A stretch of DNA of 33,791 nucleotides from a virus. Taxonomy: Duplodnaviria > Caudoviricetes. The notes under the pieces are model-generated. The model had not been told where the DNA came from, did no database searches, and worked only from the letters and a program-made list of their open reading frames with translations. Of the stretch, positions 832 through 30,435 are shown piece after piece. Each line of letters begins with the position of its first letter. Within the stretch, counting starts at the first letter, position 1. The stretch is from positions 1-33,791 of the IMG/VR virus record IMGVR_UViG_3300032216_000678; one strand, written 5' to 3'. The translations under genes and the position numbers were made by a program.

Positions 832-972
832 GTGCGGAGTTTAAACGTAAATACAAACGTTCGCAAGTGTTTAAACAAAAATATATATACCCCCGGGGTG
901 TTACATTTAAACATGTGACGGGGGATGTTTACACAAGTGAATGTGTTGGATGGTGATGAGAACGTTTGTATA

Positions 973-1192
973 GGTAGGGGGGCATATAAATGTTGGAGTG
1001 GATTAGTGTGCAGGCATGGTAGGGGGACCCAACTGAGAATCTGGGGGGTAGGGGTCTCTCTCACACGCCCACACGTCACGCAACACCCATCTCCCCCTCA
1101 CGTTTACACGCCACGCCTCACACGCATACGTCACACGCACCATGCACACGCTACGCATAGGCACACGTCACGCATTAGCTCTTGGTCACACG
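973..1192. repeat. Low-complexity CACG/CACACG-rich tract with GGTAGGGG(G) tracts; candidate pac or terminus region
   Basis: About a dozen CACG within 1061-1192. G tracts at about 973-982, 1018-1026 and 1043-1054. Lies immediately downstream of terS. Confidence 0.55.
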
Positions 1193-1873
1193 CATTGGCT
1201 CTGCATTGATGACCGATATAGGCTCGATGACCTGTGCCTTGGTCAGTGGTCTCACGTTGTTCAGCAGTCGGACATGACCTGCCAACTCTTTCTTCAACTG
1301 CTCTGCCGTGAGCGAGACCTCATCTGGCTTTTCTTCTGCGCGTGTAAACATCCCGACTGTTTTGCCCATGAGTTCCAGTGCCTTTAAGCGAGAGCCTTCT
1401 TGTTTAGCTGTCTTTGCATAGTGCAACAACTGCTTCAGGACAAACCTCTTCGTTGCCGTTGCATCATCTGCCAACGCTTCCACTGTCTCTCCCCAGTGGT
1501 CGTTGAGCATCCCTTGTATACGTCTGTCCTGTGCCAACGCCCATGCGTTGGACTTGATCACTGTTGGTTTTGCCTTGGCGTCTGGATAGGCATCTCTGTA
1601 TGCCTGTTCCTGAGTCTTTCCCTCTATCAGTCCTCTGGCGAACTGGTACTGCTTTGGTGTTAATGGTCTCTGTCTCTCTGTTCCTACTGGTCTACCATCT
1701 ACCCTCATCCTTGGTGCATCTGCGAGAGCCGCAAGCCGTTCCGCTTCGCTCAAGTCCCCCGCGCCTTCTTCCTCGGAATCTTCCCCGTCTTCACTCGCCG
1801 CTTCAAGAGCGGCTAAGTACTCATCTTTTGTCGCCCTGCCCTGTTTCTCTTGATCCCCATACCGATACTTCAT
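1175..1873 (-). CDS. terS: Terminase small subunit
   Basis: LTPKQYQFARGLIEGKTQEQAYRDAYP HTH and RLKALELMGKTVGMF motif; AAGGAG RBS; upstream of terL. Confidence 0.8.
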   Translation of the reverse strand: MKYRYGDQEKQGRATKDEYLAALEAASEDGEDSEEEGAGDLSEAERLAALADAPRMRVDGRPVGTERQRPLTPKQYQFARGLIEGKTQEQAYRDAYPDAKAKPTVIKSNAWALAQDRRIQGMLNDHWGETVEALADDATATKRFVLKQLLHYAKTAKQEGSRLKALELMGKTVGMFTRAEEKPDEVSLTAEQLKKELAGHVRLLNNVRPLTKAQVIEPISVINAEPMRVTKS

Positions 1874-1932
1874 TTGGTCACTCCTTTACTGTATGTTTAA
1901 ACAGTTCGTTCGCATGATAACGCAAGCGGAGG

Positions 1933-2143
1933 TTATCCACAACCTGTTTACATCTTTGCACTTATCCACAGCCTGTGAATAACTTCTGTGAGTTTGGCGT
2001 TACAAGCCCTTACCCTCTCCAACCCCTTCACCCCGTCCCGTTCATCATGGAGTAAGGGTTTACCCTAGTAAACTTATCCACATATCCACAATATCCACAA
2101 CAGCCTGTGGACATCTCTAAGTTATCCACATCAGTGTGGATAA
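1933..2143. promoter_or_regulatory. Cluster of DnaA boxes
   Basis: Perfect TTATCCACA at 1933, 1962, 2074, 2122 (+) and 2135-2143 (-). TTATTCACA at 1974-1982 (-). Near matches at 2082, 2091 and 2106. Confidence 0.85.
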
Positions 2144-2165
2144 AAAACATAGGGTTTACCCTTAC
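2052..2165. repeat. Inverted pair of AGGGTTTACCCT quasi-palindromes flanking the inner DnaA boxes
   Basis: GTAAGGGTTTACCCTA at 2052-2067 and TAGGGTTTACCCTTAC at 2150-2165. Confidence 0.8.
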
Positions 2166-2300
2166 TGATTAGCAGTTGCCGCCCTGTTTACACCAGCACC
2201 GCATCACCCCCACAAAACGGCTTAGAACGCCTCAAGTACAGAGTCTTAGTTCCCTATATATAGACCCCGCCAACGAATACCCGACTGTTTTACTCAAGTG

Positions 2301-2330
2301 TTGACTTGCACGTTTACATTGTGCTACAGT
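2301..2330 (+). promoter_or_regulatory. Putative sigma70 early promoter
   Basis: TTGACT-18 nt-TACAGT with extended -10 (TGc), upstream of the plus-strand early operon. Confidence 0.6.
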
Positions 2331-2644
2331 GCTGGTATGCGCTAGTGATATTGCTCATTGAGTCGATATCACTAGGTGAGCAAAGGTGATCGAGCCTACA
2401 GGTGTACAGCCCTCAAGTCTGTAACCCTACTGATGGAATTCAGTGCTGAACTGCCCAGCATAAGGTAGGTCTGTGGCGATACCCTCGGGGAGCAATACAG
2501 GCAAGGGCAACGCCTTGCATCTGTCCACCGAGACGATAGAAAAAACATCCCCTATGAGATGCCAACTGACAACCTCAGTGCAAGCCCTCGCGGCTTGCGC
2601 GGACGCTGTCCGAAACCCCTTTAACTGTAATCGGAGAACAAACC

Positions 2645-2890: not shown

Positions 2891-2962
2891 CATTTCAGCC
2901 ACTTGCCCCGCGAGTCGGGGCTTGTGAGTGCAATGTTGCACGTTTACAACTGGAGAATCAAC

Positions 2963-3541
2963 ATGACATTTTCAACCCGTGAGGAATGGCTCACCCAAGG
3001 CGTGGAAGAACTCCGCCCCATCTTTGCCCTGCATAACAAACCCTTGCCGCAAAAGATTCGGGTCGCCTGTGGTTTCCCTCTGGACGCCAAGCGATCCAAG
3101 GCTATCGGTCAATGCTGGGCAGACACTGCAAGCGCAGATCACACCATCGAAATTTTGATCAGCCCCACCCTTGACAACCCCGTAGAAGTTTTTGAAGTGC
3201 TGGTGCATGAGTTGTGCCACGCCACCGCAGGCGCGATGAACCACGGGGTTAACTTTCAGAAAATTGCTGGTTTGATGCACCTTGCACCAACGGGTACGGG
3301 ACGTGAGCCGTGGAAGTCAACTCGGGGTCACGTTCCCTTCTTCGCCAATGACTATGCCGCCATCATCGATTCGCTCGAGGCTTACCCGCACTCTGCGCTG
3401 ACGTTCGCCACCAAGAAAACGCAAGGCACTCGGATGTTCAAGGCTTTGTGCCCTTCCTGCGGTTATACAGTGCGGCTCACCCAAAAATGGGTCGCTGTTG
3501 GTATGCCTACCTGCCCCTGTGGCGACACCCTTGCCCTTTAA
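2963..3541 (+). CDS. SprT-like zincin metallopeptidase with C-terminal Zn ribbon
   Basis: HELCH (HExxH), downstream H-G-x-x-F, CPSC...CPC. Start moved to the ATG at 2963 after GGAGA. Confidence 0.85.
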   Translation: MTFSTREEWLTQGVEELRPIFALHNKPLPQKIRVACGFPLDAKRSKAIGQCWADTASADHTIEILISPTLDNPVEVFEVLVHELCHATAGAMNHGVNFQKIAGLMHLAPTGTGREPWKSTRGHVPFFANDYAAIIDSLEAYPHSALTFATKKTQGTRMFKALCPSCGYTVRLTQKWVAVGMPTCPCGDTLAL

Positions 3542-3564
3542 TTTTTTAACTCTGGAGAATCAAC

Positions 3565-4998
3565 ATGACTACACCTCACAACGTTCACTTTGAAATCAGC
3601 CGCATCCCCCTAAACTTGGTGATCTCGGCATACAACCGCCTGAACACCTCGCCGCTGGTTGGCGCGACTAAGACTGACGCCGTAAACTGGTTGGCTGAAG
3701 AGGTCGGCAAGGGCTTTTGTTCCATTGACGACATCCGCAACTCACCCATCATTGCCGCCGTTAACCGCACGGGTGACCCCGCCATTGCCGCCAAGATTGA
3801 TGCCGCTGGTGCTACCGCCGCCGCCGCCCATAATAATGCGCTCAACGCTTTGACTCGCCTCGACAATCACTCCACCATCATGGAACATCAAGAACAGGCA
3901 CTTGCGACACTGACCAAGGGCTTGGACAACTTGTCCGAGAAGATGGGGACATTCACCATCGACCCCGCCTTGGTGCGCGAGTCGGTTGCCAAGGCAGTGG
4001 CTGATGAGTTCGCACCATTTAAACGTGCAGTCAAAGCCGCCAAAGCTGAAGCCGTGGTTGCCGACCTGTCTGCTGTTCACGTTGTTGACACTAAGACCTG
4101 CGCGGAAGTGTTTGGCGTGGACGTCAAGGATACCAAGGGCAACCCCCTCAAAGTATCCATCTGGAATGATCCGACCGCCCCCGCCGTTGATCCTGATTTT
4201 ATTTGGACTGAGTCGATTCTCAAGCACCTGCTCTTGTCGGATGCCACGGGCGAAAACCTGTGGTTTGGCGGCGAGAAGGGTACGGGTAAGAGCGAGACCG
4301 CCCGTCAGTTTGCCGCCCGTACTGGACGCGCGTTTACACGCATCAACTTCCACAAGCACACCAGCGCAGAAGAGTACTTGGGTGCTACTGGTCTCAAGGG
4401 TGGGGAGACAGTGTTCGAGCCGCGAGACTTCCTCGCCGCCTACACACACCCGTCCAACGTGATCCTGCTCGATGAGGTGACCAACGCTGACGCTGGAGAA
4501 CTTGCCCCCCTGAACGGCTTCCTCGAGCCGAATGCCGCCGTGTCATTCGGCGGTCAGACATGGGGTCGCGCCTCGGGTGTGCTGGTGTTTGTTGCTGACA
4601 ATACCTTCGGTTCGGGTGATGACTCGGGACGCTACACGGGGACGCGCACCCAGAACGTGGCACTGGTTGACCGCTTCTCCCGTGTGATCCCCTTCACCTT
4701 CCTGCCCCAAGACTTTGAGATCGAGGCGATCACCAAGCGCACGGGTTGCACCAAGGCTCTGGCGGAACACGCGCACCAAGCCGTGCGAGTGGCGCGTATC
4801 AAGGTAGAAAAGGGTGAGATCGTGGACGCCCCATCGATTCGCTCGATCATGGCATTCGTTCGCGCCCTGACTGTACTTGACCCTGCCCAAGCTTGGGAGA
4901 CCGCCGTAGTTGCGCGTCAACCCTCCGAGAGCCACGCCATCCTGCGCGGCATCTTTGAGACCTGCATTAGCCAAGATCAAATTAACTCCAACCTGTGA
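3565..4998 (+). CDS. CobS/MoxR-like AAA+ ATPase
   Basis: Walker A GEKGTGKS, Walker B ILLDE, ADNT and ALVDRF motifs; adjacent to a VWA gene. Confidence 0.9.
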   Translation: MTTPHNVHFEISRIPLNLVISAYNRLNTSPLVGATKTDAVNWLAEEVGKGFCSIDDIRNSPIIAAVNRTGDPAIAAKIDAAGATAAAAHNNALNALTRLDNHSTIMEHQEQALATLTKGLDNLSEKMGTFTIDPALVRESVAKAVADEFAPFKRAVKAAKAEAVVADLSAVHVVDTKTCAEVFGVDVKDTKGNPLKVSIWNDPTAPAVDPDFIWTESILKHLLLSDATGENLWFGGEKGTGKSETARQFAARTGRAFTRINFHKHTSAEEYLGATGLKGGETVFEPRDFLAAYTHPSNVILLDEVTNADAGELAPLNGFLEPNAAVSFGGQTWGRASGVLVFVADNTFGSGDDSGRYTGTRTQNVALVDRFSRVIPFTFLPQDFEIEAITKRTGCTKALAEHAHQAVRVARIKVEKGEIVDAPSIRSIMAFVRALTVLDPAQAWETAVVARQPSESHAILRGIFETCISQDQINSNL

Positions 4999-5006
4999 GG
5001 TGCAAT

Positions 5007-6542
5007 ATGAAAACGTACAAAGGCTACACGTTTAAACCCGCCGTCCAAGAACTGATCCACAAGGTCGCCAAGGACTTGGGTAAGACTGTCAAGATTCGGT
5101 GGAATGCAGGTGTGCAGACCGCTGGAATCGACCAGTACAACAACATCTACTTGTCTGATGTTGCTGACGATGCAATTCTGAATCAGAATGACTTGATTAA
5201 GTATTGCGGATACGGGGTGCATGAGTTGCTCCACTCCCTGTACACCAACTTCAACTACTGCTCCGACATTGCCTATGTTCGCGCTCTGCACAACGGGATT
5301 GAGGACGCATGGATTGAGCACAAGGGAATTGCCAAGCTGGTAACTGGTAATGCAGGTGGCTTGCTGAGTGGGCTGGTTGAAATGATGACCGATGTTGCCT
5401 TGGTCGAGGTCAAGGATTGGTCAGACCCCAAGCAGTACCCCTACGCCCTCGCCGTCTATCTGCGGCGCCACGCCACAACTAAAGTGCCGTTGGCTAATGG
5501 TCTCGAGCCGATCTTTGCCCACGTTGCCGCCAAGCTGGACTCTTGTGTGGACAGTGGCGACACTCTTAAATTGGCTGAGTGGGTCTATGCCCAACTGAAA
5601 ACCCTACCAGAAGACAAGCCCAAGAAAGGCTCAGGAAAGCCATCAGATGGCTCTCAGAGCGGCGATCAGGGCGAGGGTAAGGGTGAGGGTGCGGGTCAGC
5701 AAGAAAACGGCTCAGGGAATGCCAGACAACCCAAGCCCAACACTGTCCCCGTCAACCCCGAGCCAACCCTCGGTGAGGGCAAGGCTGGTAACGGCGGGAG
5801 CTACAGCGAGGACGCAAGCCTGAAGCCAAATGGCTACCACGTTGAAGCTGGTGCTCTGTACGCCCCAAACGCATCTGTACCCGCCAAGCTTCGTTATAGC
5901 GTCAAGCGTTTGTTTGAGGACTCGGGACGTGATGAGTTCCAGCGCAACCGCAAGGCTGGTTCGGTTAACGTCCACGCCCTGCCAACCGCTGGTTTCAGCG
6001 ATAAGGTGTTTAAACGTAGACACGAGGCTGAAGGCATCGACTCTGCCGTGGCTATCGTGCTTGACGTGTCGGGGTCAATGAGTGATGCCGCTGGTTCGGG
6101 CAGTCGGATTGCAATTGCGGCTGAAGCTTGCATGGCTCTGGTCGATGTGCTCAACCGCGCAGGTGTAGCCACTACAGTGCTGACCTTCGCGGGAAATACA
6201 AGTGTTCTCAAGCCGTTCAATATGTCGGCGGCAACGGCGATCAAAGAACTTTGCAAGGTCAGAACCTCTGGCTCGACCAACGACTACTTTGCCGTGCGAT
6301 ATGCACACAAGGTTTTGTTCAACCGCCCCGAACAGCGCAAGGTCTGCCTTGTGCTGACTGATGGTGATGGTGATGAAATCAGCACGAGCGAACAGATCGC
6401 GGTGGGCGAACGCCTCGGCGTGACAACGATTGGGATCGGCATTGATCTGGACGTTAGCAGGGTTTATCCCAAGAACGCGACTGTCAAAAACTTGAGCGAG
6501 TTGGGTGCAGTGGCATTCGACAAGATCAAGTTGGCGGCTTAA
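5007..6542 (+). CDS. CobT-like protein: N-terminal HExxH domain, G/E/Q-rich linker, C-terminal VWA
   Basis: HELLH...NGIED; MIDAS motif DVSGSM...T...LTDG; GAGG RBS before the ATG at 5007. Confidence 0.9.
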   Translation: MKTYKGYTFKPAVQELIHKVAKDLGKTVKIRWNAGVQTAGIDQYNNIYLSDVADDAILNQNDLIKYCGYGVHELLHSLYTNFNYCSDIAYVRALHNGIEDAWIEHKGIAKLVTGNAGGLLSGLVEMMTDVALVEVKDWSDPKQYPYALAVYLRRHATTKVPLANGLEPIFAHVAAKLDSCVDSGDTLKLAEWVYAQLKTLPEDKPKKGSGKPSDGSQSGDQGEGKGEGAGQQENGSGNARQPKPNTVPVNPEPTLGEGKAGNGGSYSEDASLKPNGYHVEAGALYAPNASVPAKLRYSVKRLFEDSGRDEFQRNRKAGSVNVHALPTAGFSDKVFKRRHEAEGIDSAVAIVLDVSGSMSDAAGSGSRIAIAAEACMALVDVLNRAGVATTVLTFAGNTSVLKPFNMSAATAIKELCKVRTSGSTNDYFAVRYAHKVLFNRPEQRKVCLVLTDGDGDEISTSEQIAVGERLGVTTIGIGIDLDVSRVYPKNATVKNLSELGAVAFDKIKLAA

Positions 6543-6543
6543 C

Positions 6544-6561
6544 GGGGGTTCGCCCCCATTT
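6544..6561 (+). terminator. GC hairpin with UUCG loop after the CobT-like gene
   Basis: GGGGG-TTCG-CCCCC-ATTT; weak U tract. Confidence 0.55.
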
Positions 6562-6577
6562 AAACAGGAGAAAGCAA

Positions 6578-6905: not shown

Positions 6906-6919
6906 CTGAGGAAAATGAA

Positions 6920-7129: not shown

Positions 7130-7293
7130 AAGAAGAACTAGTTGATGCCGTGCTTGCACAGGTAGAGATAGACCTGTTCAATGGTGACTACACTGTTTTG
7201 GAGGAACTGCTCAAGCACGTACCTAACGATATGCTGACGGCATATTTGCCAGAGGAAGTAGCCAACAAGATAACCAAAGGAGAAACCAAATGA
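7126..7293 (+). CDS. Hypothetical protein (55 aa)
   Basis: Manual translation MKEELVDAVLAQVEIDLFNGDYTVLEELL...YLPEE; AAGGAG RBS; ATGA overlaps at both ends. Confidence 0.75.
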   Translation: MKEELVDAVLAQVEIDLFNGDYTVLEELLKHVPNDMLTAYLPEEVANKITKGETK

Positions 7294-7559
7294 AACACTC
7301 TGAACGCTTTGCCCTCAACCAGTGGTTGAGTGACTACCCCGCCGACAAGACCTATGACGAGATCATTGATCTCATTCACGAGGAAGATGAGTCAGTGACC
7401 CTTTGGGAAAGGATCGATGGCTATGGGGCTAGGGCGGCTATTGAGGAGATTGAAAACACCCGTTATGCAGTGGAACGCATGATGGATAACCTCGAGCGCG
7501 GCTTACCTCTCGCGGAAAAGACCGAGGAAGAATCAATAGAAGAAGGGGCTATGCCATGA
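7290..7559 (+). CDS. Hypothetical protein, paralog A
   Basis: MKHSERFALNQWLSDYP shared with 7735..8019. Confidence 0.85.
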   Translation: MKHSERFALNQWLSDYPADKTYDEIIDLIHEEDESVTLWERIDGYGARAAIEEIENTRYAVERMMDNLERGLPLAEKTEEESIEEGAMP

Positions 7560-7738
7560 AGACGTATACCGCAACCCTTGTGACCAAGCAGTACCAGACA
7601 GTACAAGTTGTAGTTCCTGATGTTTACACGCAAGAGCAGATTGAACGTGTGATATGCGAGAACGCCAGCTTGTCAGATGGAGAATTTGAAAACGATGTGT
7701 ATGACTTGGAAGAAGTTAAAGAAGGAGAAAGCAAATGA
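7556..7738 (+). CDS. Hypothetical protein
   Basis: ATGA-coupled, 60 aa. Confidence 0.7.
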   Translation: MKTYTATLVTKQYQTVQVVVPDVYTQEQIERVICENASLSDGEFENDVYDLEEVKEGESK

Positions 7739-8019
7739 AACACTCAGAACGATTCGCCCTCAACCAATGGTTGAGCGATTACCCGCACGACAAGACCTAT
7801 GCCGAGATCATGGAGGCGTTAAACAATGGCGGCGGCGTGTGGACTGAGATCGGCATCAACCCTTGGTATGCGGTAGATGTTTTTGAACCCGACCAAGTGG
7901 CAGAGTTCATTGATGACACCCGCCGCCATGTCGAGGACATGATGGACGATCTGGCATTTGGCATTTGTCTCAGCGACAAGACAGAAGATCAATCACGCGC
8001 AGAAGGGATCATCGAATGA
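7735..8019 (+). CDS. Hypothetical protein, paralog B
   Basis: Homologous along its length to 7290..7559. Confidence 0.85.
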   Translation: MKHSERFALNQWLSDYPHDKTYAEIMEALNNGGGVWTEIGINPWYAVDVFEPDQVAEFIDDTRRHVEDMMDDLAFGICLSDKTEDQSRAEGIIE

Positions 8020-8213: not shown

Positions 8214-8220
8214 TTGGGGC

Positions 8221-8364: not shown

Positions 8365-8388
8365 ACCCGTTTAAACATAGGAGAAATT

Positions 8389-8619
8389 ATGATTGCCTTA
8401 ACACCTGAAGAAGAAGCCAAGCTGTTGGAGTTACACGCTGGATTGCAAAATGTATTCGAGACAACCGCCGCACCACCCGAGATGATTTACCCCACCCTCA
8501 TTCGAGCGATGTGTGACTACGCCGTTATGTTTGAAAGCAAGACTGAATTTTTGGATCGAATGAGTTACTGCTTCGATGCGGTGAAGTTTCTTAACCCAAC
8601 ATCTGATGAGGTGCATTGA
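8389..8619 (+). CDS. Hypothetical protein
   Basis: AGGAGA RBS, 76 aa. Confidence 0.7.
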   Translation: MIALTPEEEAKLLELHAGLQNVFETTAAPPEMIYPTLIRAMCDYAVMFESKTEFLDRMSYCFDAVKFLNPTSDEVH

Positions 8620-11988: not shown

Positions 11989-12016
11989 ATTATACACACT
12001 CTTCAACAAGTGTCAA
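11989..12016 (-). promoter_or_regulatory. Consensus sigma70 promoter
   Basis: TTGACA-16 nt-TATAAT on the minus strand. Confidence 0.85.
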
Positions 12017-12383: not shown

Positions 12384-12410
12384 GTTCATATGTTTAAACG
12401 TTATGTTACT

Positions 12411-15885: not shown

Positions 15886-16276
15886 AGCCAGAAAAGTTGC
15901 AATGAAACAAGACAGAACTGGTTTTGTTTTGACGATTTGCATTCATCCTGACGATCTGCCTGAAGAACTAATCAGGGATTTTGTTGGGGCAAGGTACGGC
16001 TGTGCGTTGGTTCGGATTAATGACGATGAGACGCCAGTCCCATACAACAACCGTGTCAAAAAGGCGGGGATGATTTGTAAGGACAAAAGCTTTCAAAAGT
16101 TTATGTCCTCCGAGATTGCTGGCTCTCCAATCAATGAAGACCAAGCCGCAACCTACCTGTGTGAACACTGCGGCATCGAGTCACGCTCTGAGTTAAACGG
16201 GAACGTTACCGCTCAAGTGTTGTTTGATGAATTAATACTTGATTACGAAAGTTGGAATAAAAATGATCCCTTCTAA
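15869..16276 (+). CDS. Hypothetical phage protein
   Basis: AAGGA RBS; 135 aa; CGIESRSEL motif. Confidence 0.8.
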   Translation: MALQFEARKVAMKQDRTGFVLTICIHPDDLPEELIRDFVGARYGCALVRINDDETPVPYNNRVKKAGMICKDKSFQKFMSSEIAGSPINEDQAATYLCEHCGIESRSELNGNVTAQVLFDELILDYESWNKNDPF

Positions 16277-16601
16277 AAACTACAAGCCGTTTATGACGTA
16301 CTTGTCTCCAAAAGAGCATGTAAACCTGAAGAAGTTTTCCAAGGCCAGCAAGGTACCAATGTCGCAGTTGGTGCGTGAGGGTGTTGCCGCTCGACTGTCT
16401 GGGGAAAATCCATACAACACAGGATTCAATGACGGGCTGAAGAAGTCGGTAGAGGTTACCAAGGGTCTCAAGGCTTCAGAGATGCGCTTCCCTTCAGGCA
16501 AATCATTTGGTGAGTTGGTCGAGGAGTCTGTGCTTGTTCACATTATCGTGGAGAAAAAACATGAAGCTATCCGGACAGAAGAACCAGTGCCAAGCGTGTA
16601 A
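16263..16601 (+). CDS. Ribbon-helix-helix-like DNA-binding protein
   Basis: KPFMTYLSPKEHVNLKKFSKASKVPMSQLVREGV beta-alpha-alpha pattern. Confidence 0.65.
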   Translation: MIPSKNYKPFMTYLSPKEHVNLKKFSKASKVPMSQLVREGVAARLSGENPYNTGFNDGLKKSVEVTKGLKASEMRFPSGKSFGELVEESVLVHIIVEKKHEAIRTEEPVPSV

Positions 16602-18865: not shown

Positions 18866-19083
18866 AAACCATTATTCATGTGAACCAACATGTGGTCAAA
18901 GCTAACCGTTTAAACAGGGAGAATAATCCTGTATTGACAGTCAAGACATACAAGGACAACAGGTATGTCCATGAGGTCGTGATCCACGGCATGAGCAAAG
19001 TTGTTTATAAGCCTGAGAAGCCGCTGTCCTGCGGCGCACATGTTTGGATTGAAACCCAAGAGGAAGTGGAGATTGTTAAATGA
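18862..19083 (+). CDS. Hypothetical phage protein
   Basis: IIHVNQH...PVLTVK...KPLSCGAHVWIET. Confidence 0.8.
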   Translation: MKTIIHVNQHVVKANRLNRENNPVLTVKTYKDNRYVHEVVIHGMSKVVYKPEKPLSCGAHVWIETQEEVEIVK

Positions 19084-21501: not shown

Positions 21502-21788
21502 CCTATAGAAACAAGAAGCTTCTTGAGGCCGTTCGTGAGGCTCCTTGTATGCACTGTGGGGCGCAGGATGGCACTGTAGTCGCCGCCCACTCCAACCAAC
21601 AGCGTGACGGTAAAGGCATGGGCATCAAAGCCTCAGACTACCGCATCGCCGCCCTCTGCCACATCTGCCACTTCCAGTTGGATCAAGGGCTTCTGTGGAA
21701 CAAAGAGCAAAGGCGTGAGGTATGGGAAGACGCCCACCGCAAAACGATGGGCTGGCTCTTCGACAACGATATTATTTCAGTTCGCTGA
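21498..21788 (+). CDS. YbcO/DUF1364-like Zn-binding putative nuclease
   Basis: CMHC...VVAAHSN...GKGMGIKASD..IAALCHICH. Confidence 0.8.
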   Translation: MTYRNKKLLEAVREAPCMHCGAQDGTVVAAHSNQQRDGKGMGIKASDYRIAALCHICHFQLDQGLLWNKEQRREVWEDAHRKTMGWLFDNDIISVR

Positions 21789-24700
21789 TTGTCTTCTTCA
21801 GGGTCTGGATGTTGGCCGTCAGGTTCTTCTCCGCCCTTCCAATCGCAGTCAAAGCATCTCTCTTCTCTTCTGCGCTCATGGGTGAGTTTGTGATCTGGCG
21901 GCGCATGTCTCTCAATTGAGTCATGGTCTTGTCCATCTGGGAAACCATAGGTCTGACCGCCAGCGCCCCCACATTCTCCTGCAAGTACCTTGCGTAGTCC
22001 TCTGGCCTACTCGTCTTTTCCAAAAGGTTCATCGTTCGCACGGTTGTGTCAACGGTGTGCTTCAGGTCGTAGTAGGCCGTCACAGAGCCACGCGCCTCTG
22101 GGTCAATTGCAAAGCGTTTAATCACCGGCATCTGTTCAAACCGCTTAGCCGGTTTAGGGCTGTCGCTGTTTAAATCCATGATGGTGTCGATCAGGTCAAC
22201 TGCGTACATGCCCATCGTTCCGGTGTAGCCCTTGATGACGTGATCCGTCTTGAGTGGGGATAACCCTAACTTACCAAGGAACTCAGCCAGTGCTGACGTT
22301 CCCGGCCCGACTTGGAACTCAGGATCAATGTCCTTCATGCCAGCGCCAACGATCTCCCTCTGGGTGAAGAAGTTGTAGTTGGTCATGGACTCAAGGATAG
22401 GCTTCATGGTCTGCGGAATGTAGGCGGCAGGACTCAGCGGCACAAAGCTGTTAGCTGCTCTGTACATAGCCTTGCGGAAGTCTTCACCCGTATCTGTTCC
22501 GAAGAAGTAGGCAGCAATCCGCTCGGGTACCGTTTTAAACAGGGTACCCACCTCAAACGGGATTGGGATTCGTCCAACGCCCGGGATGATCCAGTTGTTG
22601 TCTTTGGTCTCTTGCTCCTGATCCTCGTAGTCTGGATTACCCGCCACTGCGAAGTAGTACATCATGGACAGGCCCAGCATGGTCATGCCGCGCACCCAGA
22701 ACTTACGCTGGATTTCCTTGGCGTCAGCTGTATTCATGTTGCCGGTGGAGGCGCGGTAGAACACATCCAGACCTTGGATACGTGCATTCAAGAATGGGAC
22801 TGCCGCAGTCAAAATGCGAACGACTGGAGAGCTACCCTTGCGGTTGAAGTTCATCACCTCTTGTGCGCGGTACAGGGCTTCAGCCTCGTCGCCTGTCTCC
22901 TTCAATACACGCTCGTAAACAGCCATACGGGTGGCTGCATCCGACGCCGTCGTGGCGTGCTCCAAACCGTCCCACACAGATTTAAACGGGGTAAGCAAAC
23001 TCTTGCCGTGGCCGGATTTCTTTTCCAAATCCTTGGCGAAGGTTTTGCCAGACTGCTCAACGTTGGCGCTGAACTCGTACCCACCAAGGATACCGGCGTC
23101 CATTAAAGCTTCAAAGGATGGATCAACACCCTTCATGGCCTTACCAAAGTTGATAATGGTTCCCGCAATTGGAGTCATGTTTGCACCGCTGGTCACGTAG
23201 GCCGACAGTGAGTCACGCAACAAGTTGGTCATAATGAAGCCCGGATCGCGTGTAACCACGTTACGCAGGAAGTTTGCCGGGGCCGACAGCAGGCCCATAA
23301 ATGGCAGCTCTGGCATGTTTAAACTCTTCACTGCGTCGATAAAGAGCTGATCGGTACACTGATACTGAACCTGTTTGCCGTTCTCCAGAACCGAAATAGT
23401 CTCCAGTGCCGAGACCTTCGACCCCGGCTGAATATCGTGAACAATCAGGACATCCTTACCCACCTTTACAGCCCTCTGTGCGGCGATGTTTTTCATGCCT
23501 GCACCGATGGCCGCATGGGTATTGCGGGTGATGGTTTCAAGGAAATCAGCCAGAGGTGCTTCACCACCCTTCAGCGCCTTGGGTGTCTTGACGCCGGAGA
23601 TAGCATTGTAAATCTTTGGTCCAAGGGTCTGCTCTCCGTCCATCTGGCGATAGAAGGGGATGTAGTCAGAGTACATGGTGAACTGACGGGCAGCTTCATC
23701 CGAAAGAACACCCGCCTTCTTCTGGTAATCCACCAGCGCATTGTTGAACTCCACCCACTCCTTGCGGATGTCTTCAAACTCAGGAAACTTCTGACCAATT
23801 TCCGCTGCGTGTTTGATGTCGGCTGGCGTGATTAAACGCTCACGGCCTTCCGAGAATAACCGGGCACCCCGTTTAACCGCAGAGTAAAACTGGAAGTACT
23901 GGTAAACCTTGGGATCGTTGTATTTTGCCAACGGTGCAAAGATGGCGGACACGCCTTTCTTGCTGTGATCCACGAGGGTTACACCATTCCTGATAACAGG
24001 CACACCGCCACGGCGGTTGCCCACACCCATCACAGATGCAACCACACCAGAATGGTTATCTGACATCAAGGCAGCAGCCTCCGCACTGTTGCGTGCAAGC
24101 AACGCCTCGCCGCCCATCTTTTCTGCGCGAAGCTTGTCTGCTTCACTTAGTCGGTTGTAGCGGTTGATTGCCGCCTGACGGTAGGATGAGAACTTTTCAG
24201 GAGCCAAGGTGCTAAGCAGACGCTCGGCCCAGCCCTTTTGCTCGCGGGTGGTTGTTACCCGGTCAACAGCAGCGTTTACATCTGCGGACATCGTTGGCAA
24301 GCTGTAGCGGATGTTTTTGGTCTCCATTCCATATTCACCAAGGTTTCCGGTGATGGACTTGACCTGATTGGGCTGGTACACCGCATAGGTCAATGGGGAG
24401 GTCTGGCTCTTGCGAGAAACAAAGCCATCAAAGCCGATCTTGCGAATGGCCTTCTGAACCAACTTGTCTTCAATCGCGGCTGTCAAGCCCTTCTGAAGCT
24501 GGCCCTTGAGGTTTCGCTCCCACTGCTCTTGGTATTTGCTGGACTCTGCGTTCTTGTACGTGTCAGATTTTAAGTACGCAACAGCGCCAAGAATCTGATC
24601 CACATGGTCAGGGTTCCTGAAGTCAAACGGCATCTCCGAACGGGCGTACAGCGGCATCACCTTCTTCTTGGAGGGTGACAAGTCCATGAGGATTTCATCC

Positions 24701-27700
24701 ATCTCGGGCTTGACCGACTTGTACTGATACATCCCGAACGCAGGGATGCTCTTGTTAACCTCTTTGATGATCTGAGCGCCACGCTCCTCGGTGATCCTGC
24801 CGCTTTCAACGGCTTTCTCGACCGCCTGTTCAAACAAGGGAATCTTCTCGCTCTTGTTCAGGGCGCGGTACATCTGCTCACGCAGACGATCTTCATCAAT
24901 GTCGGCAAACCTCTCGGACTCTTTGGCGGTGTCCGACAAATAGATGATCCCATCCTTGAACTCAACGAAGTCGCTGGTGGTGCCGTGGAACATCTTGATG
25001 GGGTCACCCCCCTCATCAAGCCACTTGCTGGCTCCAACATACTGTTTAAACTCTTCAGTGTCGGGCACGTTTGCTTTGTCTGCTGCTTCCTGAGCTTCTT
25101 CTGCGCTTGGGAAAGCAACGTTCTTCAGGCTGTAGCGGATGTCCGGGTTGTTAATGTCGTAAGTGCCAATGTTGCCGGTGGCAGACTTGATCTGAGACGG
25201 CTCATAGACGGCAAGGTTCTTTTGGCCGCCTTCTTTTACGTAGAAACCGTCAAAACCCAAATCCTTGGCCGCTTTTTGAACCGTCGAGTTTTCAATCTCT
25301 TCCCAGTTGCCAGTCTTTAAGGTTCCAGCAATCTTGTTACCAAGAGCGCGGCCATATGAGTCAAACTTTTTGTTCATCTCAGCGACAACAGCCGCCACAT
25401 GATCTGGGTTTTCGTAGTCAAAAGGATTCTCTGCGCGGACGTAAACGGGCAGGATGTTTGGCCCGGTGGGCATCATTGGTTTATACGCATTACGCAGGTA
25501 CTCTTGAGCCTCTGCGGTGGCGTCTTCGTACTTGCCTGACTTCAGGCTGTCGATCATCACCTTGCCCTCTGGGAGGGCTTTGTAATCCTTGCGGATCGCG
25601 GCAACCGCATCCTTCACGCCCTTCGCCAGTTCCTCTTTGGATAAGAACTCTTCTGGGTGTGCAGACATCCAAGCCGCACTGTCTTTTGAGAACATCTCGG
25701 CGAACTTTGGATTGTCCGTCAGGAAGATGGCACCAGCCTGCTTGCCTCTGAACTCAGTGATGTCACGGGCTGTGCCGTGGTACATAACCTTGGGTTCGCC
25801 ATCTGCGCCAACAATCTTGCTGTTACCAAACCAGCGTTTAAACTCAGGGGTGTTTGGAGCACGTAGGCTGAGCTTCTTCTCACCCATTGCAATCTCTGCT
25901 TGGGTGCCAACGTAGTTGACTGGCGCATTGTGGTTCAAGATGACCATCATTCCCATTGAGGGAACTGCGTAACCATCGTATCCAGCATCAACAACTTCAG
26001 TCTCAAACTGGTTGGAATCGCCTTGGGCCTGTGTAAACAACTTGTTCATCGCCGGGCCGGGGGCTAGGATGTTGTCGAACTGTTGCTTGTAAACGTGGTT
26101 ACCAACACCCGACTCAACGGCTGGCATGGTGCCGTCTTCTTTAGGAATGTAGAAGTAAACCCGCTTCTTGATGCGGTCGTCAAAGGCATCTTCCAAGCGG
26201 CGACGCTCTGCACCACGCAGACCTGTGCCGTACTTAGCGGCATTAAGTTCTTCTACCTTGGCGTTTCCGTAGTGAACGCCATTAAAACTGCTTGCGTCAG
26301 GCTGTTTTGTGCCAAGCACAATACCCTTTACCGGATTCTCTATGTTTTCAACACGGCCTTCTTTCCATGTCCATTCTGGCATTAGCCCAGTTTTTTGGTC
26401 TGCAAATACAGTATCCTCAACCTTAGCCGTTTGATTCTTTTCGCCGCTTGGGCCGTAGTTCAACCAGCTGTTTTGACCTCGAGTCTCAGAGGTGAGTGCG
26501 CCAAGCGCAGGGCCAGTAAAAAGCTTCGCATGAGCCTGCCATGCATTCTCTTCGCCTCGAGCACGGAATCCAGCGCCCTCAAGGCCGTGACCAAATGCGT
26601 CATGCACGGCGCGAAACAAATCGTTTGCCAGCACAGGCGCAAGGGGGCCATTGGGACCGCCAACAGGCCACTTAATGTTGGTTTTTGACAGCAGCGGGTT
26701 GGCTTCTGGGCTGAAGTCTGTTTCGTTTCCAAAACCTTCGTTGGTTGGGTATATGCCCATTTCCTTGTTGGCGCGGATATCCCGCATCGCATTCCAAGGA
26801 GAAGATAAGTATGTGAGGTTGTCGGGTTTGCTGGTGTCAATAAACCAAAACTTGTAGCCAGCATTTTCCAAAGCGCGATACTGATCAGTGGTTTGTTTGA
26901 TCAGGTCTTTGTATGCCGCCTTGACCTGTGGGTCTTGGGGTGCATGATCCATCCTGTCGTACTCTTCCGCAATACGGCGAGCACGATCTTCATCAACATC
27001 AACGTAACGCGCTTGGCGTTTTAACTCGATGCCTTTTTCTGCGGCATATTTTTCTGCGACCCCAACAAGTCTCGGGTCTGGGCCATGAAAGCCTTCGACT
27101 GATGGCGCATCTTCAAGAGGCGCAAGTCTGCGATCCTCTTCGAGTCTTCCTCGTTCTCCGATTGAGTACTTGGGTTGTTCGCCTCCTGCGCTGGGTCGAG
27201 CGGCAGGTTGTTCAGGTCTAGTGGTTTCACGCTTCTCTCCTTTTACTGGCCGTGCAGCCGACGGAGCAGCACCGCTGATACCCAGCTTACCGCCTTTTCC
27301 TCTTGACTCTGCGTATTTTCTTCCTCCATCACTGAATCCGTAGGATGGTGAGAGGACTCCCATTTTGGTGAAGAGCTTTTGCTCATAGAACCAGAGGAGG
27401 GACTGGGCTTGGTACGGCTTGATTCTTGCATTTTTTGCTACCTCATTAACAAGTGCTTTGACTGCTCTGCGTTGCGGCTCAGTTGGCGCATCAACAATTT
27501 TTCCATCCGGCCCCAGCATTTTGCCAAAGTACCGATTGAAGGTTCGGGTCATCCACTTGTCTACAGTGACATCGTGGATACCATTTAAATTGGATACAAA
27601 TGGTCCAACTTTTGGTCCAAAAGCGTAAAGCCCCGGCTTTATGTCGGCGAGTTTACCATCAATACCAGACTTCATATTGCCATACTGAAGACGGAATTGA

Positions 27701-30435
27701 TTAATTTCTCTTACGGTGTGATCACTGAACAGCCACTCCAGAGCCTTTTCCTGACCCATGTCTTTGACCATGTTGTTAAGAAAATCAAGCTGAGTTTTTT
27801 TGTTGGCAGATTGAGTCCCACCCTGCCATAAGCCTCCGGTCTCAGGATTGGTGCCCGGAATTTCTTTTGTGGCAATGTAGTGTTCAAACGCTTTAGCGGC
27901 AATAAACCAATTGTCGCGTGCGTTGGTCTGAGGCGACATGATCCCTGCGACAACGCTAAAGAGAAGACGATTTTTCTCTTCGCTTAACTGCGGAATAAAT
28001 TTTTCAGTTTGTTTAAAGGCTTCCTTGATGTCCTCTTCGTACCAATCAAGGCCAGATTTTTCTTGAGCCAGTTGGTACTCAACCTCTTTAGTTGCACTCT
28101 CTACCGCCTGATCAAAGCTTTGTTTGTCGTTGTAGTCAAGCCGGTCGCCACTGCGTTCTTTGACTTGATCATCAAAGTATTTGCCAACAGTATCGACAGT
28201 TGGCTTAATTTTGAAGTCAGGCTTTTCTTCGCCCATAACAATCGGAAGACTCAGCTTTTGTGTCTCCGCAGATTCTTTGGGAGCAGCTTTGAGCTGGCCC
28301 TTTTCAATCTTGCCGAAGATGTCGTCTGCGGTCTGGAACCCGGCACCGTTTAGATGGTTACGCAGCGCCTCAAAGAATGCCTTGATACGTTTAAATAGTG
28401 CAGCAATCATGCCGGGCGGAGGTTTAGCACCTTTGTCGTAGCTACCAAAGGCGTCGGCAATGGCTTCCTCTGTCAAGTTGTTGTTTACATAACTGTTCAG
28501 TTCGTTGCCGGAAAGACCCTTGGCTTCGCCCTGCTTAGTGAACATGTCAACGTAAGCATCGTGGCGGGACTGACCCTCTGCGTGGGGAGTCTCTTTAAGA
28601 ACATTGATCCACTCTTGGTTTGCCCGGTCATTCAAAACACGCCACTGATCGGGCGTGAAGAAGCCCAAGTCTTTCAGGGCGTGGACGGACTCATGGCGCA
28701 GGGTTTGAACCGGATTGCGTTCATCCAAGGCAATACTAATCAGGTTCTTTAGGTAGCTTCCGCCCTCGCCTTGGGGTAGCTTGGCTGCGACGTTTAGATC
28801 AACATCCTTCAGGCCAAACTGTTTCAACAGAGGCTGGAGCTGCTGCTTTAATTCCGTGCTGGCTTGAAGTTCTTGGGCTTGCTTTTGATACTCCTCCGGG
28901 CCAATCTGTTTGGCGATGTGGGATGCGGCTTGTTCTGGCGTTTTAAACGTGCCAAGCACCTCACCCTCACGCTCCTTGTGAGTTAGGTCGTATTCGTTCT
29001 GCACCCTAGTGACGGGAGCCATTGGTTTCATGGTCAAAGGCACTGAGAGGGACTGAGTCCGCTCCATCAGTTGGCTGACCTGCTCCTGAGCCTGCTGCTC
29101 TTGTAAACGCAGGTTCTCCTGAGCCTGCATGTACTGCTCGCTCTGGGTCTGGCCTGTGGCTTCCATCACTTCAACAGCGGTACGAGCCTTGGCAACGCCT
29201 TCGTTGATCTTGTCAATTTCCTGCAAAGACTTTTCAGTCTCTTGCTGCCGAATTGTGTTTAAACGCTCAATCTTTGGCTGTACTTCAGCTTCGGTAGTAA
29301 CCGTGGACAGAGGGGCATCAGAGCCTTCTGCAAAGATTTGGTAGCCCTCTGGCTCAATGGTTTCACCAACCTGACGGGCGGTAGCTTTAAATCCGCCGGG
29401 GAGTTCATGGGACTCGGGTTCAGGAGGACGGAGTGCCGCTTCCTCTTGTTCTTTTTTCAGCTGTTCATCAGCTTGTTGTTGTTGGAGCTGCTGATACTCT
29501 GCACGGGCACCGGGACGCTCAATGGTGCGTCCAGCAACACCAAATGGGCCACCAACTAAGGCTGCTCCGTAGGCGGCTTCGCCGTATTCCTTTTGAGCTT
29601 CTTCGTCAGTCAGCGGTAAGCCAGCCTGTAAACGCTCCAGCATCTGCTGTGCAACCTCGGTTGGGACTTCAGCCGCAAGACCTTTAATGCCACCCTTGGC
29701 AATAGACGCCATGATAGATTCTTTAGCGGCGGCTTCAACGGCTTCATTGGTCCCCTTCTTGAGAAGGGCTTCAGCTTGAGGGCCAAGCAACTTACCAATC
29801 GCTCCACGGCCAAGGGGCAGGACCTCAGAAAATACTTCCAAAGCTGCGCCGGGTAAGGCTGCACCAAGTGCGGCTGTACGGGAAACCTCTGGATTCTTTT
29901 CTTCAGCTTGGCGTTGAAGATTCTGGGCATACAACTGAGGAAGGGCGGACAGACCAGCGCCAGCCAAGCCGCCAACAATAGTTCCAATACCGGGCGCAAC
30001 TGCGCTACCGGCCATAGCTCCAAGACGAGCGCCGCCAATAGCTGTAGCCATGTTGGGGAACTGCTCCGCCAATGCGGCGGGGACTTGAGAAACAGCTTCG
30101 CCGACAGCGGGGAACAGTCCTCGCTCTTCGTATGCTTTCTTGACCTTTTCCAAGCTTGCGCCGGGGGCATACTGCTCACCCAGCTTTTTGCTTCGCTCTA
30201 CGCCACGCTCTGCGGCAGTCTGAGGATTAATGACAGACTCAAGCGCAGTCTCAATGTCTGAGCCAAAGCGTTTAATACCGCCAGTGAAAGCGGCACCAAT
30301 GCCCTCTTTGGGTTGAGGGGCTGGTTGACCAAGCTGACCCTGAACCAAAGACCAGACCTGATCATTGGTTAAGTCCTCGGGAGAATCCACCCGGTACTTG
30401 CCAGAACCGGGAACATCAACCATGTACTGGGGCAT
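21772..30435 (-). CDS. Giant polyvalent internal-virion (ejection) protein: zincin peptidase, HhH glycosylase-like domain, tandem ART-like domains, LPD38-like C terminus
   Basis: HESVH...EEAIA; SPQT...GPKV...VTVDKW; two [YF]HGT...GFDG...QxKS.TGN.G.Y domains; MNFNRKG...VPFLNARIQG...RIPIPFEVG C-terminal signature. Confidence 0.85.
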   Translation of the reverse strand: MPQYMVDVPGSGKYRVDSPEDLTNDQVWSLVQGQLGQPAPQPKEGIGAAFTGGIKRFGSDIETALESVINPQTAAERGVERSKKLGEQYAPGASLEKVKKAYEERGLFPAVGEAVSQVPAALAEQFPNMATAIGGARLGAMAGSAVAPGIGTIVGGLAGAGLSALPQLYAQNLQRQAEEKNPEVSRTAALGAALPGAALEVFSEVLPLGRGAIGKLLGPQAEALLKKGTNEAVEAAAKESIMASIAKGGIKGLAAEVPTEVAQQMLERLQAGLPLTDEEAQKEYGEAAYGAALVGGPFGVAGRTIERPGARAEYQQLQQQQADEQLKKEQEEAALRPPEPESHELPGGFKATARQVGETIEPEGYQIFAEGSDAPLSTVTTEAEVQPKIERLNTIRQQETEKSLQEIDKINEGVAKARTAVEVMEATGQTQSEQYMQAQENLRLQEQQAQEQVSQLMERTQSLSVPLTMKPMAPVTRVQNEYDLTHKEREGEVLGTFKTPEQAASHIAKQIGPEEYQKQAQELQASTELKQQLQPLLKQFGLKDVDLNVAAKLPQGEGGSYLKNLISIALDERNPVQTLRHESVHALKDLGFFTPDQWRVLNDRANQEWINVLKETPHAEGQSRHDAYVDMFTKQGEAKGLSGNELNSYVNNNLTEEAIADAFGSYDKGAKPPPGMIAALFKRIKAFFEALRNHLNGAGFQTADDIFGKIEKGQLKAAPKESAETQKLSLPIVMGEEKPDFKIKPTVDTVGKYFDDQVKERSGDRLDYNDKQSFDQAVESATKEVEYQLAQEKSGLDWYEEDIKEAFKQTEKFIPQLSEEKNRLLFSVVAGIMSPQTNARDNWFIAAKAFEHYIATKEIPGTNPETGGLWQGGTQSANKKTQLDFLNNMVKDMGQEKALEWLFSDHTVREINQFRLQYGNMKSGIDGKLADIKPGLYAFGPKVGPFVSNLNGIHDVTVDKWMTRTFNRYFGKMLGPDGKIVDAPTEPQRRAVKALVNEVAKNARIKPYQAQSLLWFYEQKLFTKMGVLSPSYGFSDGGRKYAESRGKGGKLGISGAAPSAARPVKGEKRETTRPEQPAARPSAGGEQPKYSIGERGRLEEDRRLAPLEDAPSVEGFHGPDPRLVGVAEKYAAEKGIELKRQARYVDVDEDRARRIAEEYDRMDHAPQDPQVKAAYKDLIKQTTDQYRALENAGYKFWFIDTSKPDNLTYLSSPWNAMRDIRANKEMGIYPTNEGFGNETDFSPEANPLLSKTNIKWPVGGPNGPLAPVLANDLFRAVHDAFGHGLEGAGFRARGEENAWQAHAKLFTGPALGALTSETRGQNSWLNYGPSGEKNQTAKVEDTVFADQKTGLMPEWTWKEGRVENIENPVKGIVLGTKQPDASSFNGVHYGNAKVEELNAAKYGTGLRGAERRRLEDAFDDRIKKRVYFYIPKEDGTMPAVESGVGNHVYKQQFDNILAPGPAMNKLFTQAQGDSNQFETEVVDAGYDGYAVPSMGMMVILNHNAPVNYVGTQAEIAMGEKKLSLRAPNTPEFKRWFGNSKIVGADGEPKVMYHGTARDITEFRGKQAGAIFLTDNPKFAEMFSKDSAAWMSAHPEEFLSKEELAKGVKDAVAAIRKDYKALPEGKVMIDSLKSGKYEDATAEAQEYLRNAYKPMMPTGPNILPVYVRAENPFDYENPDHVAAVVAEMNKKFDSYGRALGNKIAGTLKTGNWEEIENSTVQKAAKDLGFDGFYVKEGGQKNLAVYEPSQIKSATGNIGTYDINNPDIRYSLKNVAFPSAEEAQEAADKANVPDTEEFKQYVGASKWLDEGGDPIKMFHGTTSDFVEFKDGIIYLSDTAKESERFADIDEDRLREQMYRALNKSEKIPLFEQAVEKAVESGRITEERGAQIIKEVNKSIPAFGMYQYKSVKPEMDEILMDLSPSKKKVMPLYARSEMPFDFRNPDHVDQILGAVAYLKSDTYKNAESSKYQEQWERNLKGQLQKGLTAAIEDKLVQKAIRKIGFDGFVSRKSQTSPLTYAVYQPNQVKSITGNLGEYGMETKNIRYSLPTMSADVNAAVDRVTTTREQKGWAERLLSTLAPEKFSSYRQAAINRYNRLSEADKLRAEKMGGEALLARNSAEAAALMSDNHSGVVASVMGVGNRRGGVPVIRNGVTLVDHSKKGVSAIFAPLAKYNDPKVYQYFQFYSAVKRGARLFSEGRERLITPADIKHAAEIGQKFPEFEDIRKEWVEFNNALVDYQKKAGVLSDEAARQFTMYSDYIPFYRQMDGEQTLGPKIYNAISGVKTPKALKGGEAPLADFLETITRNTHAAIGAGMKNIAAQRAVKVGKDVLIVHDIQPGSKVSALETISVLENGKQVQYQCTDQLFIDAVKSLNMPELPFMGLLSAPANFLRNVVTRDPGFIMTNLLRDSLSAYVTSGANMTPIAGTIINFGKAMKGVDPSFEALMDAGILGGYEFSANVEQSGKTFAKDLEKKSGHGKSLLTPFKSVWDGLEHATTASDAATRMAVYERVLKETGDEAEALYRAQEVMNFNRKGSSPVVRILTAAVPFLNARIQGLDVFYRASTGNMNTADAKEIQRKFWVRGMTMLGLSMMYYFAVAGNPDYEDQEQETKDNNWIIPGVGRIPIPFEVGTLFKTVPERIAAYFFGTDTGEDFRKAMYRAANSFVPLSPAAYIPQTMKPILESMTNYNFFTQREIVGAGMKDIDPEFQVGPGTSALAEFLGKLGLSPLKTDHVIKGYTGTMGMYAVDLIDTIMDLNSDSPKPAKRFEQMPVIKRFAIDPEARGSVTAYYDLKHTVDTTVRTMNLLEKTSRPEDYARYLQENVGALAVRPMVSQMDKTMTQLRDMRRQITNSPMSAEEKRDALTAIGRAEKNLTANIQTLKKTISELK

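Follow-up and report, generated by a model that had tools for sequence, protein, structure and literature searches.

An eight-base-pair palindrome dispersed through a tailed-phage genome fragment follows the zinc-ribbon tail of a SprT-like protein

Abundance, codon use and conservation of the word

The window analysed in this study, positions 1 to 33,791 of the IMG/VR record IMGVR_UViG_3300032216_000678, is a 33.8-kb fragment of a tailed phage that harbors terL, terS, a primase/helicase, Sak, an exonuclease, a MoxR-type AAA/vWA pair and a 2887-amino-acid polyvalent protein. Our subject is the palindromic 8-bp word GTTTAAAC, which is scattered through this DNA, and the SprT-like gene at 2963-3541 (plus strand), the partner that tracks the word and that a preliminary description of the window had not named. 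All 19 copies of GTTTAAAC listed in that description were recovered at exactly the positions given, and its estimate of under one copy by chance is borne out by an expectation of 0.46-0.49 (Markov orders 0-2), placing the word about 40-fold over chance and making it the top-ranked 8-mer of the window at Markov orders 2 and 3. The many one-mismatch variants that it had also reported proved to be real for GTTTACAC/GTGTAAAC (11 copies) and GTTTAAAT/ATTTAAAC (10 copies); GTTTACAT/ATGTAAAC reached 5 and the others 0-6, hence the enrichment is selective rather than general, and the signal is a graded word with the consensus GTTTA[A/C]A[C/T]. The flanks of GTTTAAAC show a weak Y/R preference.

Against 50 hand-called coding sequences of the window, 14 of the 19 copies are coding, and these always read x-Phe-Lys-x or x-Leu-Asn. 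None of 1000 synonymous-codon shuffles reached 14 copies (means of 0.97 genome-wide and 1.29 within genes, with maxima of 5 and 6), so that the enrichment survives a codon-preserving background, and the observed counts of GTTTACAC, GTGTAAAC, GTTTAAAT and ATTTAAAC were each matched in at most one of 1000 such shuffles. Phe-Lys dicodons are written TTT AAA in 17 of 23 cases, and Leu-Asn dicodons are written TTA AAC in 13 of 49, while TTA accounts for just 74 of the 771 Leu codons. The phage keeps GTTTAAAC through unusual codon choice. Non-coding DNA, which makes up 9.5% of the window, holds 5 of the 19 exact sites (P 0.03) and 12 of the 45 sites of the word family (P 8e-4), and the first 15 kb are richer than the remainder, with 14 of the 19 exact copies (P 0.009).

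Tblastn with 28 proteins of the window was used to place the 14 coding sites on 17 related genomes, and conservation was scored in the 13 relatives having GTTTAAAC as their main word, the counts being non-independent as these genomes are related. Exact GTTTAAAC was found at 53 of 127 aligned positions, compared with about 4% for other octamers. Of the 41 positions at which the encoded amino acids are identical, 30 retained the word, the corresponding rates being 15% in other octamers and 13-23% in degeneracy-matched ones (364/1554 and 58/449), and four-fold degenerate sites are merely 29-43% identical among the relatives compared. The word is conserved beyond the synonymous background, at sites where synonymous positions are near saturation, and better than its synonymous neighbours; together with the codon shuffles, this supports the earlier proposal of a selected protein-binding code. 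Thirteen of 14 near-complete relatives carry 23-54 copies of GTTTAAAC, and reversed-word controls number 0-4.

The SprT-like protein and its association with the word

The SprT-like gene encodes a protein of 192 amino acids, the reader of GTTTAAAC that we infer, in which a zincin domain is followed by a C-terminal zinc-ribbon tail. It matches phrog_6361 at E 1.7e-38 and PF10263 at E 8e-5, the latter below the cut-off, and its structure model has a predicted local distance difference test score (pLDDT) of 92. The zincin domain (residues 1-145; 2963-3397, plus strand) retains H82-E83-x-x-H86 and H94 in the window phage, and its model came closest to Wss1 (Z 7.7), SPRTN (Z 7.6) and abylysin (Z 7.6) in VIA-align, while Foldseek with the SprT-like model gave no match at E 0.001. 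The basic zinc-ribbon tail (3398-3538, plus strand) contains Q154, T156, R157, K160, C163, C166, Y168, R171, K175, W176 and C184, which are invariant or nearly invariant columns in an alignment of 20 sequences with 40% mean identity, and it is the predicted DNA-reading module, on the strength of these residues and of its covariation with the word. Regarding its fold, a single-sequence model of the tail was too weak (pLDDT 62) and had no Foldseek match, the SprT-type zinc ribbon PF17283 gave a weak match in one of 11 tails (E 0.26; Atlas score 0.78), and a sequence search of solved structures returned nothing better than E 0.25. No stand-alone tail, or tail on another domain, was found among the loci, and one fragment-like match appeared among shorter proteins, in searches that are biased to close relatives. 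The family is present in 164 named phage and 74 plasmid records, often near an integrase, and our data offer a concrete candidate binding site and function for a gene annotated only as a SprT-like protease.

The GTTTAAAC family follows the SprT-like gene across unrelated actinophages, proteobacterial phages and plasmids. Among 12 named carriers of the gene, four of which were counted as 50-kb parts, eight are enriched: LazerLemon with 35 copies of GTTTACAC against 0.0 expected, Yang with 20 against 0.1, Gretchen with 14 against 0.0, a Magnetospira plasmid with 18 copies of GTTTAAAC against 0.4, Alexa with 8 against 1.0, ECO1230-10 with 5 against 1.0, Mano with 4 against 0.1, and a Sphingobium plasmid with 3 against 0.0. 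The four carriers showing no enrichment are Dismas, CN1, Epa5 and a Ralstonia insidiosa plasmid. Ten hand-picked relatives lacking the gene have 0, 1, 0, 0, 2, 3, 2, 3, 5 and 0 sites, a range of 0-5 to be compared with 4-20 in nine carriers with an intact tail (P 2e-4). Two phages of one shared host strain, Emotion with the gene and BaileyBlu without it, have 17 and 0 sites, respectively. Within the clade of the window, a gene-free complete member that could serve as control was not found, since all 14 near-complete genomes carry the gene.

Directly downstream of the SprT-like gene lies a pair of genes for a MoxR/CobS-like AAA ATPase and a vWA/CobT-like protein (3565-6542), and a similar trio occurs in an unrelated phage contig, L221. 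This contig (L221:9247-17165; G036:C42), from a betaproteobacterial metagenome-assembled genome bin, has 26 sites in 8 kb, and contigs C8 and C27 of the same bin harbor dense clusters as well, so the word could be used to flag phage contigs in metagenome-assembled genomes.

Covariation of the tail and the word

In order to compare the two parts of the protein, 138 distinct sequences, reduced to 96 representatives below 85% identity, were collected from every locus that measured 8 kb or more and encoded a near-complete protein; many of these loci were found through the tail pattern, so the sample is biased. A tail was taken as canonical if it had Q154, T156, R157, R171 and W176, and a locus as enriched at Poisson P<0.001 with three words pooled. 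Enrichment was recorded in 73 of 85 loci with a canonical tail and in 4 of 11 with an altered one (P 8e-4). Dismas, Eden, CN1 and Epa5, which keep HExxH and have a degenerate tail, carry 0-1 sites. Conversely, catalytic residues have been lost in 18 of the 96 proteins, and 17 of these 18 keep the word, at a median density of 14.6 per 10 kb compared with 11.9 for active proteins. On a quick tree, on which the counts of origins in this section rest, the HExxH-dead state requires at least five changes, and one group of dead proteins sits inside active clades that have good support. The complete genomes G004, G007 and G019, in which a dead protein is the only copy found, have 54, 49 and 46 sites. 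The GTTTAAAC family tracks the zinc-ribbon tail and not the protease.

Changes within the tail are accompanied by changes in the word. Four proteins, which fall into three distinct parts of the quick tree, have Pro in place of Gly155, and in every one of these parts GTTTAAAT is more frequent than GTTTAAAC; the fraction of GTTTAAAC relative to GTTTAAAT is 0, 0.13, 0.37 and 0.41 in these four, compared with a median of 0.83 in 66 others, three of which are also below 0.5. In G011, where Arg157 has become Asn, the outer G/C preference is lost, GTTTAAAC occurring twice (1.3 expected) next to 9 copies of ATTTAAAT and 14 of CTTTAAAG. Genomes with changed tails carry their own word variant at homologous coding positions; part of such shifts could come from restriction of the palindrome by hosts. 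Four further clade members (L115, L117, L315 and L328) have GTTTACAC as their main word, with 9-15 copies and 0-1 of GTTTAAAC, and in L115 and L117 Val replaces Lys175. The Ralstonia insidiosa plasmid (L076:3219-3289) has an altered tail, Q-T-R-R, and no GTTTAAAC; two copies of GTGTACAC were seen (0.3 expected), just upstream of its SprT-like gene, which may possibly represent a further specificity variant.

Placement of the sites

Several exact copies in the window lie beside promoter-like elements or just ahead of genes. The copy at 839-846 contributes to the -10 hexamer of a promoter-like minus-strand element read by eye, TTGCGA-17-TAAACT, which precedes a LexA-like gene and terL. The copy at 869-876 stands upstream of this element's -35 hexamer, at a distance of 2 bp; the element (838-866) was found in 38 of 49 related loci and was not called by a promoter scanner in the window. 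The copy at 1895-1902 is, also as read by eye, just ahead of a TACAGT hexamer and the terS ribosome-binding site (RBS) on the minus strand, that at 8369-8376 is immediately ahead of the RBS of the open reading frame (ORF) at 8389, and that at 12392-12399 is about 9 bp upstream of a promoter-like TTGACA-17-TATGCT (minus strand, 12383-12355). As for the SprT-like operon itself, the spacer of its promoter-like TTGACT-18-TACAGT (2301-2330, plus strand) holds the variant GTTTACAT at 2312-2319, and the near-match GTTTACAA (2942-2949, plus strand) stands immediately ahead of the RBS of the gene. The coding copies comprise two in the vWA gene, read as x-Phe-Lys-x (5030 and 6008; 5030-6015), three between 9055 and 10887 (9055, 10306 in the primase/helicase, and 10880), four between 12744 and 14990 (12744, 13512 in the exonuclease, 14317 in Sak, and 14983), one in a 73-amino-acid ORF (18908-18915), and four in the polyvalent protein gene (23317, 25044, 25836 and 29257; 23317-29264).

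A comparable placement was observed in the named elements. Non-coding sites are in excess in all five annotated elements (6/16, 8/20, 13/36, 12/19 and 3/9 sites), and of 15 named elements with an intact tail, 13 have a site no more than 80 bp upstream of the SprT-like gene, the exceptions being R5C, whose site is one gene further up, and the Sphingobium plasmid, which has none. Maureen has 17 sites, one of them 31 bp before the gene. Sites were also detected inside the rare sigma-70-like promoters of Gretchen (3/16) and Yang (2/20). Many sites occupy RBS-ATG spacers and stop codons. Summed over eight complete relatives, density falls from 41-52 sites per 5-kb bin in the vicinity of the gene to 4-16 at the far side, and in the clade of the window it drops three- to four-fold away from the early region. 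In contig L221, the 8-kb early operon holds its 26 sites and the 9.2-kb terL/portal operon has 0.

Discussion

The GTTTAAAC word is real and selected, and on our favoured reading it belongs to a system of the dispersed-operator type with an unexpected reader. Since the word tracks the tail and follows the gene, we consider it very probable that the tail of the SprT-like protein reads the word, a view drawn from sequence comparison. What the bound protein does is a more divided matter. We give about even chances to a stoperator-like, autoregulated, genome-wide repressor of a new fold. Under this reading, the SprT-like protein would be an early product that binds GTTTAAAC, probably as a dimer; host RNA polymerase would be blocked by the copies over the -35, spacer and -10, both at the operon of the protein itself and at the packaging genes; through the many coding copies the protein would be retained along the genome, to serve as roadblocks or as a titrating sink; and the zincin domain may act as a dimerisation or switch module for which catalysis is optional. 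Repression with autoregulation is favoured because of the site upstream of the gene, the placement in promoter cores, the repeated loss of catalysis and a published natural mutant. According to the main text of a recent preprint on actinophages, no immunity repressor has been identified in Cluster AZ phages, every member of which has the SprT-like gene conserved, and clear plaques are formed by Liebe, in whose copy of the gene one base is inserted, where Maureen forms turbid ones (bioRxiv 10.1101/2025.05.26.655371). The protein is thus a candidate for the immunity repressor of Cluster AZ, and cultured phage-host pairs exist (Maureen/Liebe, Yang and HeidiAbel_Bas97).

A number of observations weigh against this repressor, or against the strength of the link on which it is built. 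Liebe and Maureen differ at three further bases. The majority of the sites are intragenic (14/19), unlike stoperators, and they have no consistent orientation, a property that is undefined for the palindrome itself, GTTTACAC being in sense in 8/14, 14/20 and 13/35 cases, with Emotion as the exception (15 of 17 sites on one strand). The test of promoter overlap in the window is partly circular because the word itself supplies TAAAC. In 10 of 11 named elements, seven of them at P<0.05, the coefficient of variation (CV) of spacing is smaller than the random mean, and such even spacing fits coverage better than promoter control; as a universal rule it was rejected, as it fails in the window (CV 0.83, P 0.28) and in its clade. 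HExxH is intact in 78 of the 96 proteins, and 12 of the 85 loci with a canonical tail are not enriched, for instance two Bryobacterales loci with one site each. Two members of a Jilinvirus-like group, ECOO78 and Alux-21, lack the gene and yet have 3 and 5 sites, matching the carriers ECO1230-10 (5) and Persinger (4); recent loss of the gene would explain these sites and is plausible, their terL and the terL of a carrier being 97-98% identical. The LexA-like and SprT-like genes occur together in 14 of 14 near-complete clade genomes, so the two can be separated only through distant elements. In the 126 ORFs of at least 90 amino acids scanned in two complete clade genomes (G002 and G004; a few ORFs cut at stretch ends apart), neither an integrase nor a methyltransferase was found, and hence classical lysogeny is not evident. 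Lastly, the relatives are not independent, so that P values overstate the support.

The intragenic and unoriented sites, the lack of an integrase in the clade and the usually intact HExxH keep alive another explanation, which we regard as rather unlikely: that the tail reads the word in order to tether a protease, or a substrate trap in the dead forms, to the element's own DNA, where it would clear away proteins that are bound there and are trapped or hostile, for example adducts of recombinase or topoisomerase, silencers, or defence complexes that translocate. The likeness of the fold to Wss1 and SPRTN, the even spacing in named elements, the frequent proximity of the gene to an integrase, and the rarity of the word in hosts, by which it would mark self DNA, all speak in its favour, as does ArdC, a mobile-element zincin that counters restriction even with a mutated active site (PMC7213743, in the text available). 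It is set back by the repeated loss of catalytic residues while the word remains as dense or denser, by the absence of even spacing in the window and its clade, and by the promoter-core placement, of which it has no need. We judge it improbable that the protein is instead a phage nucleoid or timing factor that coats, compacts or counts genomes, or aids DNA entry or packaging, with repression as a side effect. Genome-wide sites in both orientations, the density gradient away from the gene and the many sites at low-cost positions, among them RBS-ATG spacers and stop codons, would suit such a factor; the same system, however, is found on plasmids, which are neither packaged nor ejected, and the terL/portal operon of L221 is free of sites beside its dense early operon.

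An origin of GTTTAAAC in the host or in mutation, whether as a HIP1-like chromosomal word, as a methylation target or as the site at which a DNA-binding protein of the host acts, is largely refuted and we hold it to be very improbable. The word is a perfect palindrome with HIP1-like density and conservation, and the chromosome of the phage's own host may lie outside those counted; but in 61 genomes of one betaproteobacterial order, a candidate host group, GTTTAAAC reaches at most about 31 per Mb, the value for the window being 562 per Mb, and its reversed control outnumbers it in 52 of the 61, equals it in 3 and falls below it in 6. Five bacterial genomes carrying a SprT-like gene show no overall enrichment, and in phages of Actinomycetota and several proteobacterial classes the word occurs only together with that gene. 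The preliminary suggestions of a HIP1-like or host word and of a methylation target accordingly lose ground, the latter also through the negative methyltransferase scan (no Pfam match); in Yang a methyltransferase adjoins the SprT-like gene, and the annotation of Gretchen lists none. As a separate candidate, we considered GTWWAC, a methylation motif of Burkholderiaceae, and rejected it, since GTTTAC and GTAAAC exceed codon shuffles only marginally and neither GTTAAC nor GTATAC is enriched.

Least probable of all, in our estimate, is that the word is read by the LexA-type winged-helix protein of 76 amino acids encoded at 601-831 on the minus strand (PF01726, E 8.4e-9), with the two exact sites directly upstream of its gene as autoregulatory operators. 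All 49 loci with this gene do carry GTTTAAAC (318 copies against 5.2 expected). The gene was, however, found in none of the 12 named elements, eight of which are word-enriched, just three weak matches to the protein appeared among 50,697 named phages, and its promoter holds a different palindrome, GAACGTTC, present near the gene in several relatives and the likelier operator. The winged-helix reader, our own first guess and one of the proteins that the preliminary description had put forward for binding tests, was dropped on account of its absence from distant word-bearing elements, and the LexA-type gene is likely a regulated target. It is a stand-alone LexA DNA-binding domain devoid of the peptidase domain, situated between terS and terL, with 187 relatives of similar length. 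A near-palindrome CGAACGTT(T/C)G at 854-863 overlaps the -35 of the winged-helix promoter, has the perfect form CGAACGTTCG in many relatives, and is likely the operator of this peptidase-less protein.

Comparison with known systems

SPRTN (Spartan) and Wss1 are DNA-dependent metalloproteases that act on DNA-protein crosslinks and are not known to use a sequence tag. The phage protein shares with them a zincin fold that carries HExxH and a third His and, behind it, a small zinc-binding module; it differs in that its tail is tracked by a fixed word and in the frequent loss of its active site. The SprT-like protease of Cluster AZ, EH and EB actinophages (Lizalica gp46), of the same family as the window protein at 37-43% identity, was put forward as a repressor candidate with a DNA-binding domain predicted at its C-terminus as well as a predicted SPRTN-like function (main text of bioRxiv 10.1101/2025.05.26.655371); that main text reports no binding site and contains neither GTTTAC nor GTGTAAAC (0 occurrences).

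The closest parallel in arrangement is offered by Cluster A mycobacteriophages (L5 gp71, TipsytheTRex), in which more than 20 copies of a short site, some at promoters, serve one phage protein; these stoperators are described as 13 bp long, asymmetric, oriented with transcription and mainly intergenic, and the repressor as a monomer with a helix-turn-helix and a Stoperator domain (PMC9283540, in the parts consulted). The present system shares the many genome-wide sites for one phage protein (19 in 34 kb, and 23-54 in 13 of 14 relatives), and departs from it in having an 8-bp palindrome or near-palindrome that lies mostly in genes (14 of 19) and has no consistent orientation, and in having a zincin with a zinc ribbon as its putative reader. 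The Cluster A repressor confers superinfection immunity, to which the counterpart here is only the reported plaque difference between Liebe and Maureen. HIP1 of cyanobacteria is likewise an 8-bp palindrome, tens-fold over-represented and under selection, and is chromosomal and tied to orphan methyltransferases in the available parts of the reports (PMC5861425, PMC4390886). GTTTAAAC is similar in its over-representation and in conservation beyond the synonymous background, and its spacing is even in most named elements and not in the window or its clade; it differs in being confined to mobile elements and tied to an element-encoded protein, with the limit, as noted, that the true host may lie outside the chromosomes counted. 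ArdC of plasmid R388 also joins a zincin to a DNA-binding domain (here predicted), and its catalysis is dispensable for the function tested; it binds single-stranded DNA through its N-terminal domain (PMC7213743, available text), has no dispersed word, and differs in domain order and DNA-binding fold.

In a literature search that covered mainly papers outside subscription, no paper tying the word to phages or to SprT-like proteins was found, and the available text of a Microbacterium phage survey lists other motifs and not this word (PMC7302621). A broader picture, to which we assign somewhat less than even chances, is that of a widespread, horizontally moving two-part module, in which a Spartan-fold protein would read, through its zinc ribbon, an 8-bp self-tag written into the element's own genes. 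Such a sequence-addressed protease or repressor would mark phage and plasmid DNA as self, rewrite codon choice across the genome, switch its tag with single tail residues, and be the missing immunity factor of AZ- and EH-type temperate phages. If true, a Spartan-fold protein would have gained sequence specificity, for which the data already include naturally occurring switches of specificity and knockouts of catalysis, and a protease addressed by a tag would be categorically new.

Other features of the window

Between terS and the early promoter, a cluster of the DnaA-box-like TTATCCACA (1933-2143, five exact copies) is interleaved with GTTTA[A/C]A[C/T] sites. In 15 of 17 relatives, one to six exact copies of TTATCCACA occur no more than about 2 kb from the SprT-like gene, and the cluster may possibly be a DnaA-dependent origin or a DnaA sink. 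A conserved CCCCGGGGG-TATATATA-TTTTT element (877-900), located between terS and the winged-helix and terL genes in most of the 49 loci, is a candidate packaging start or genome end. The polyvalent protein of 2887 amino acids (21772-30435) has three ART-PolyVal stretches and LPD38, and its relatives have one ART stretch. Two tandem paralogous ORFs (7290-7559 and 7735-8019) share their first 15 residues. An RHH-like gene occupies 16263-16601. A perfect TTGACA-16-TATAAT promoter on the minus strand (11989-12016) is located upstream of the primase operon and is followed by a long region with no convincing ORF.

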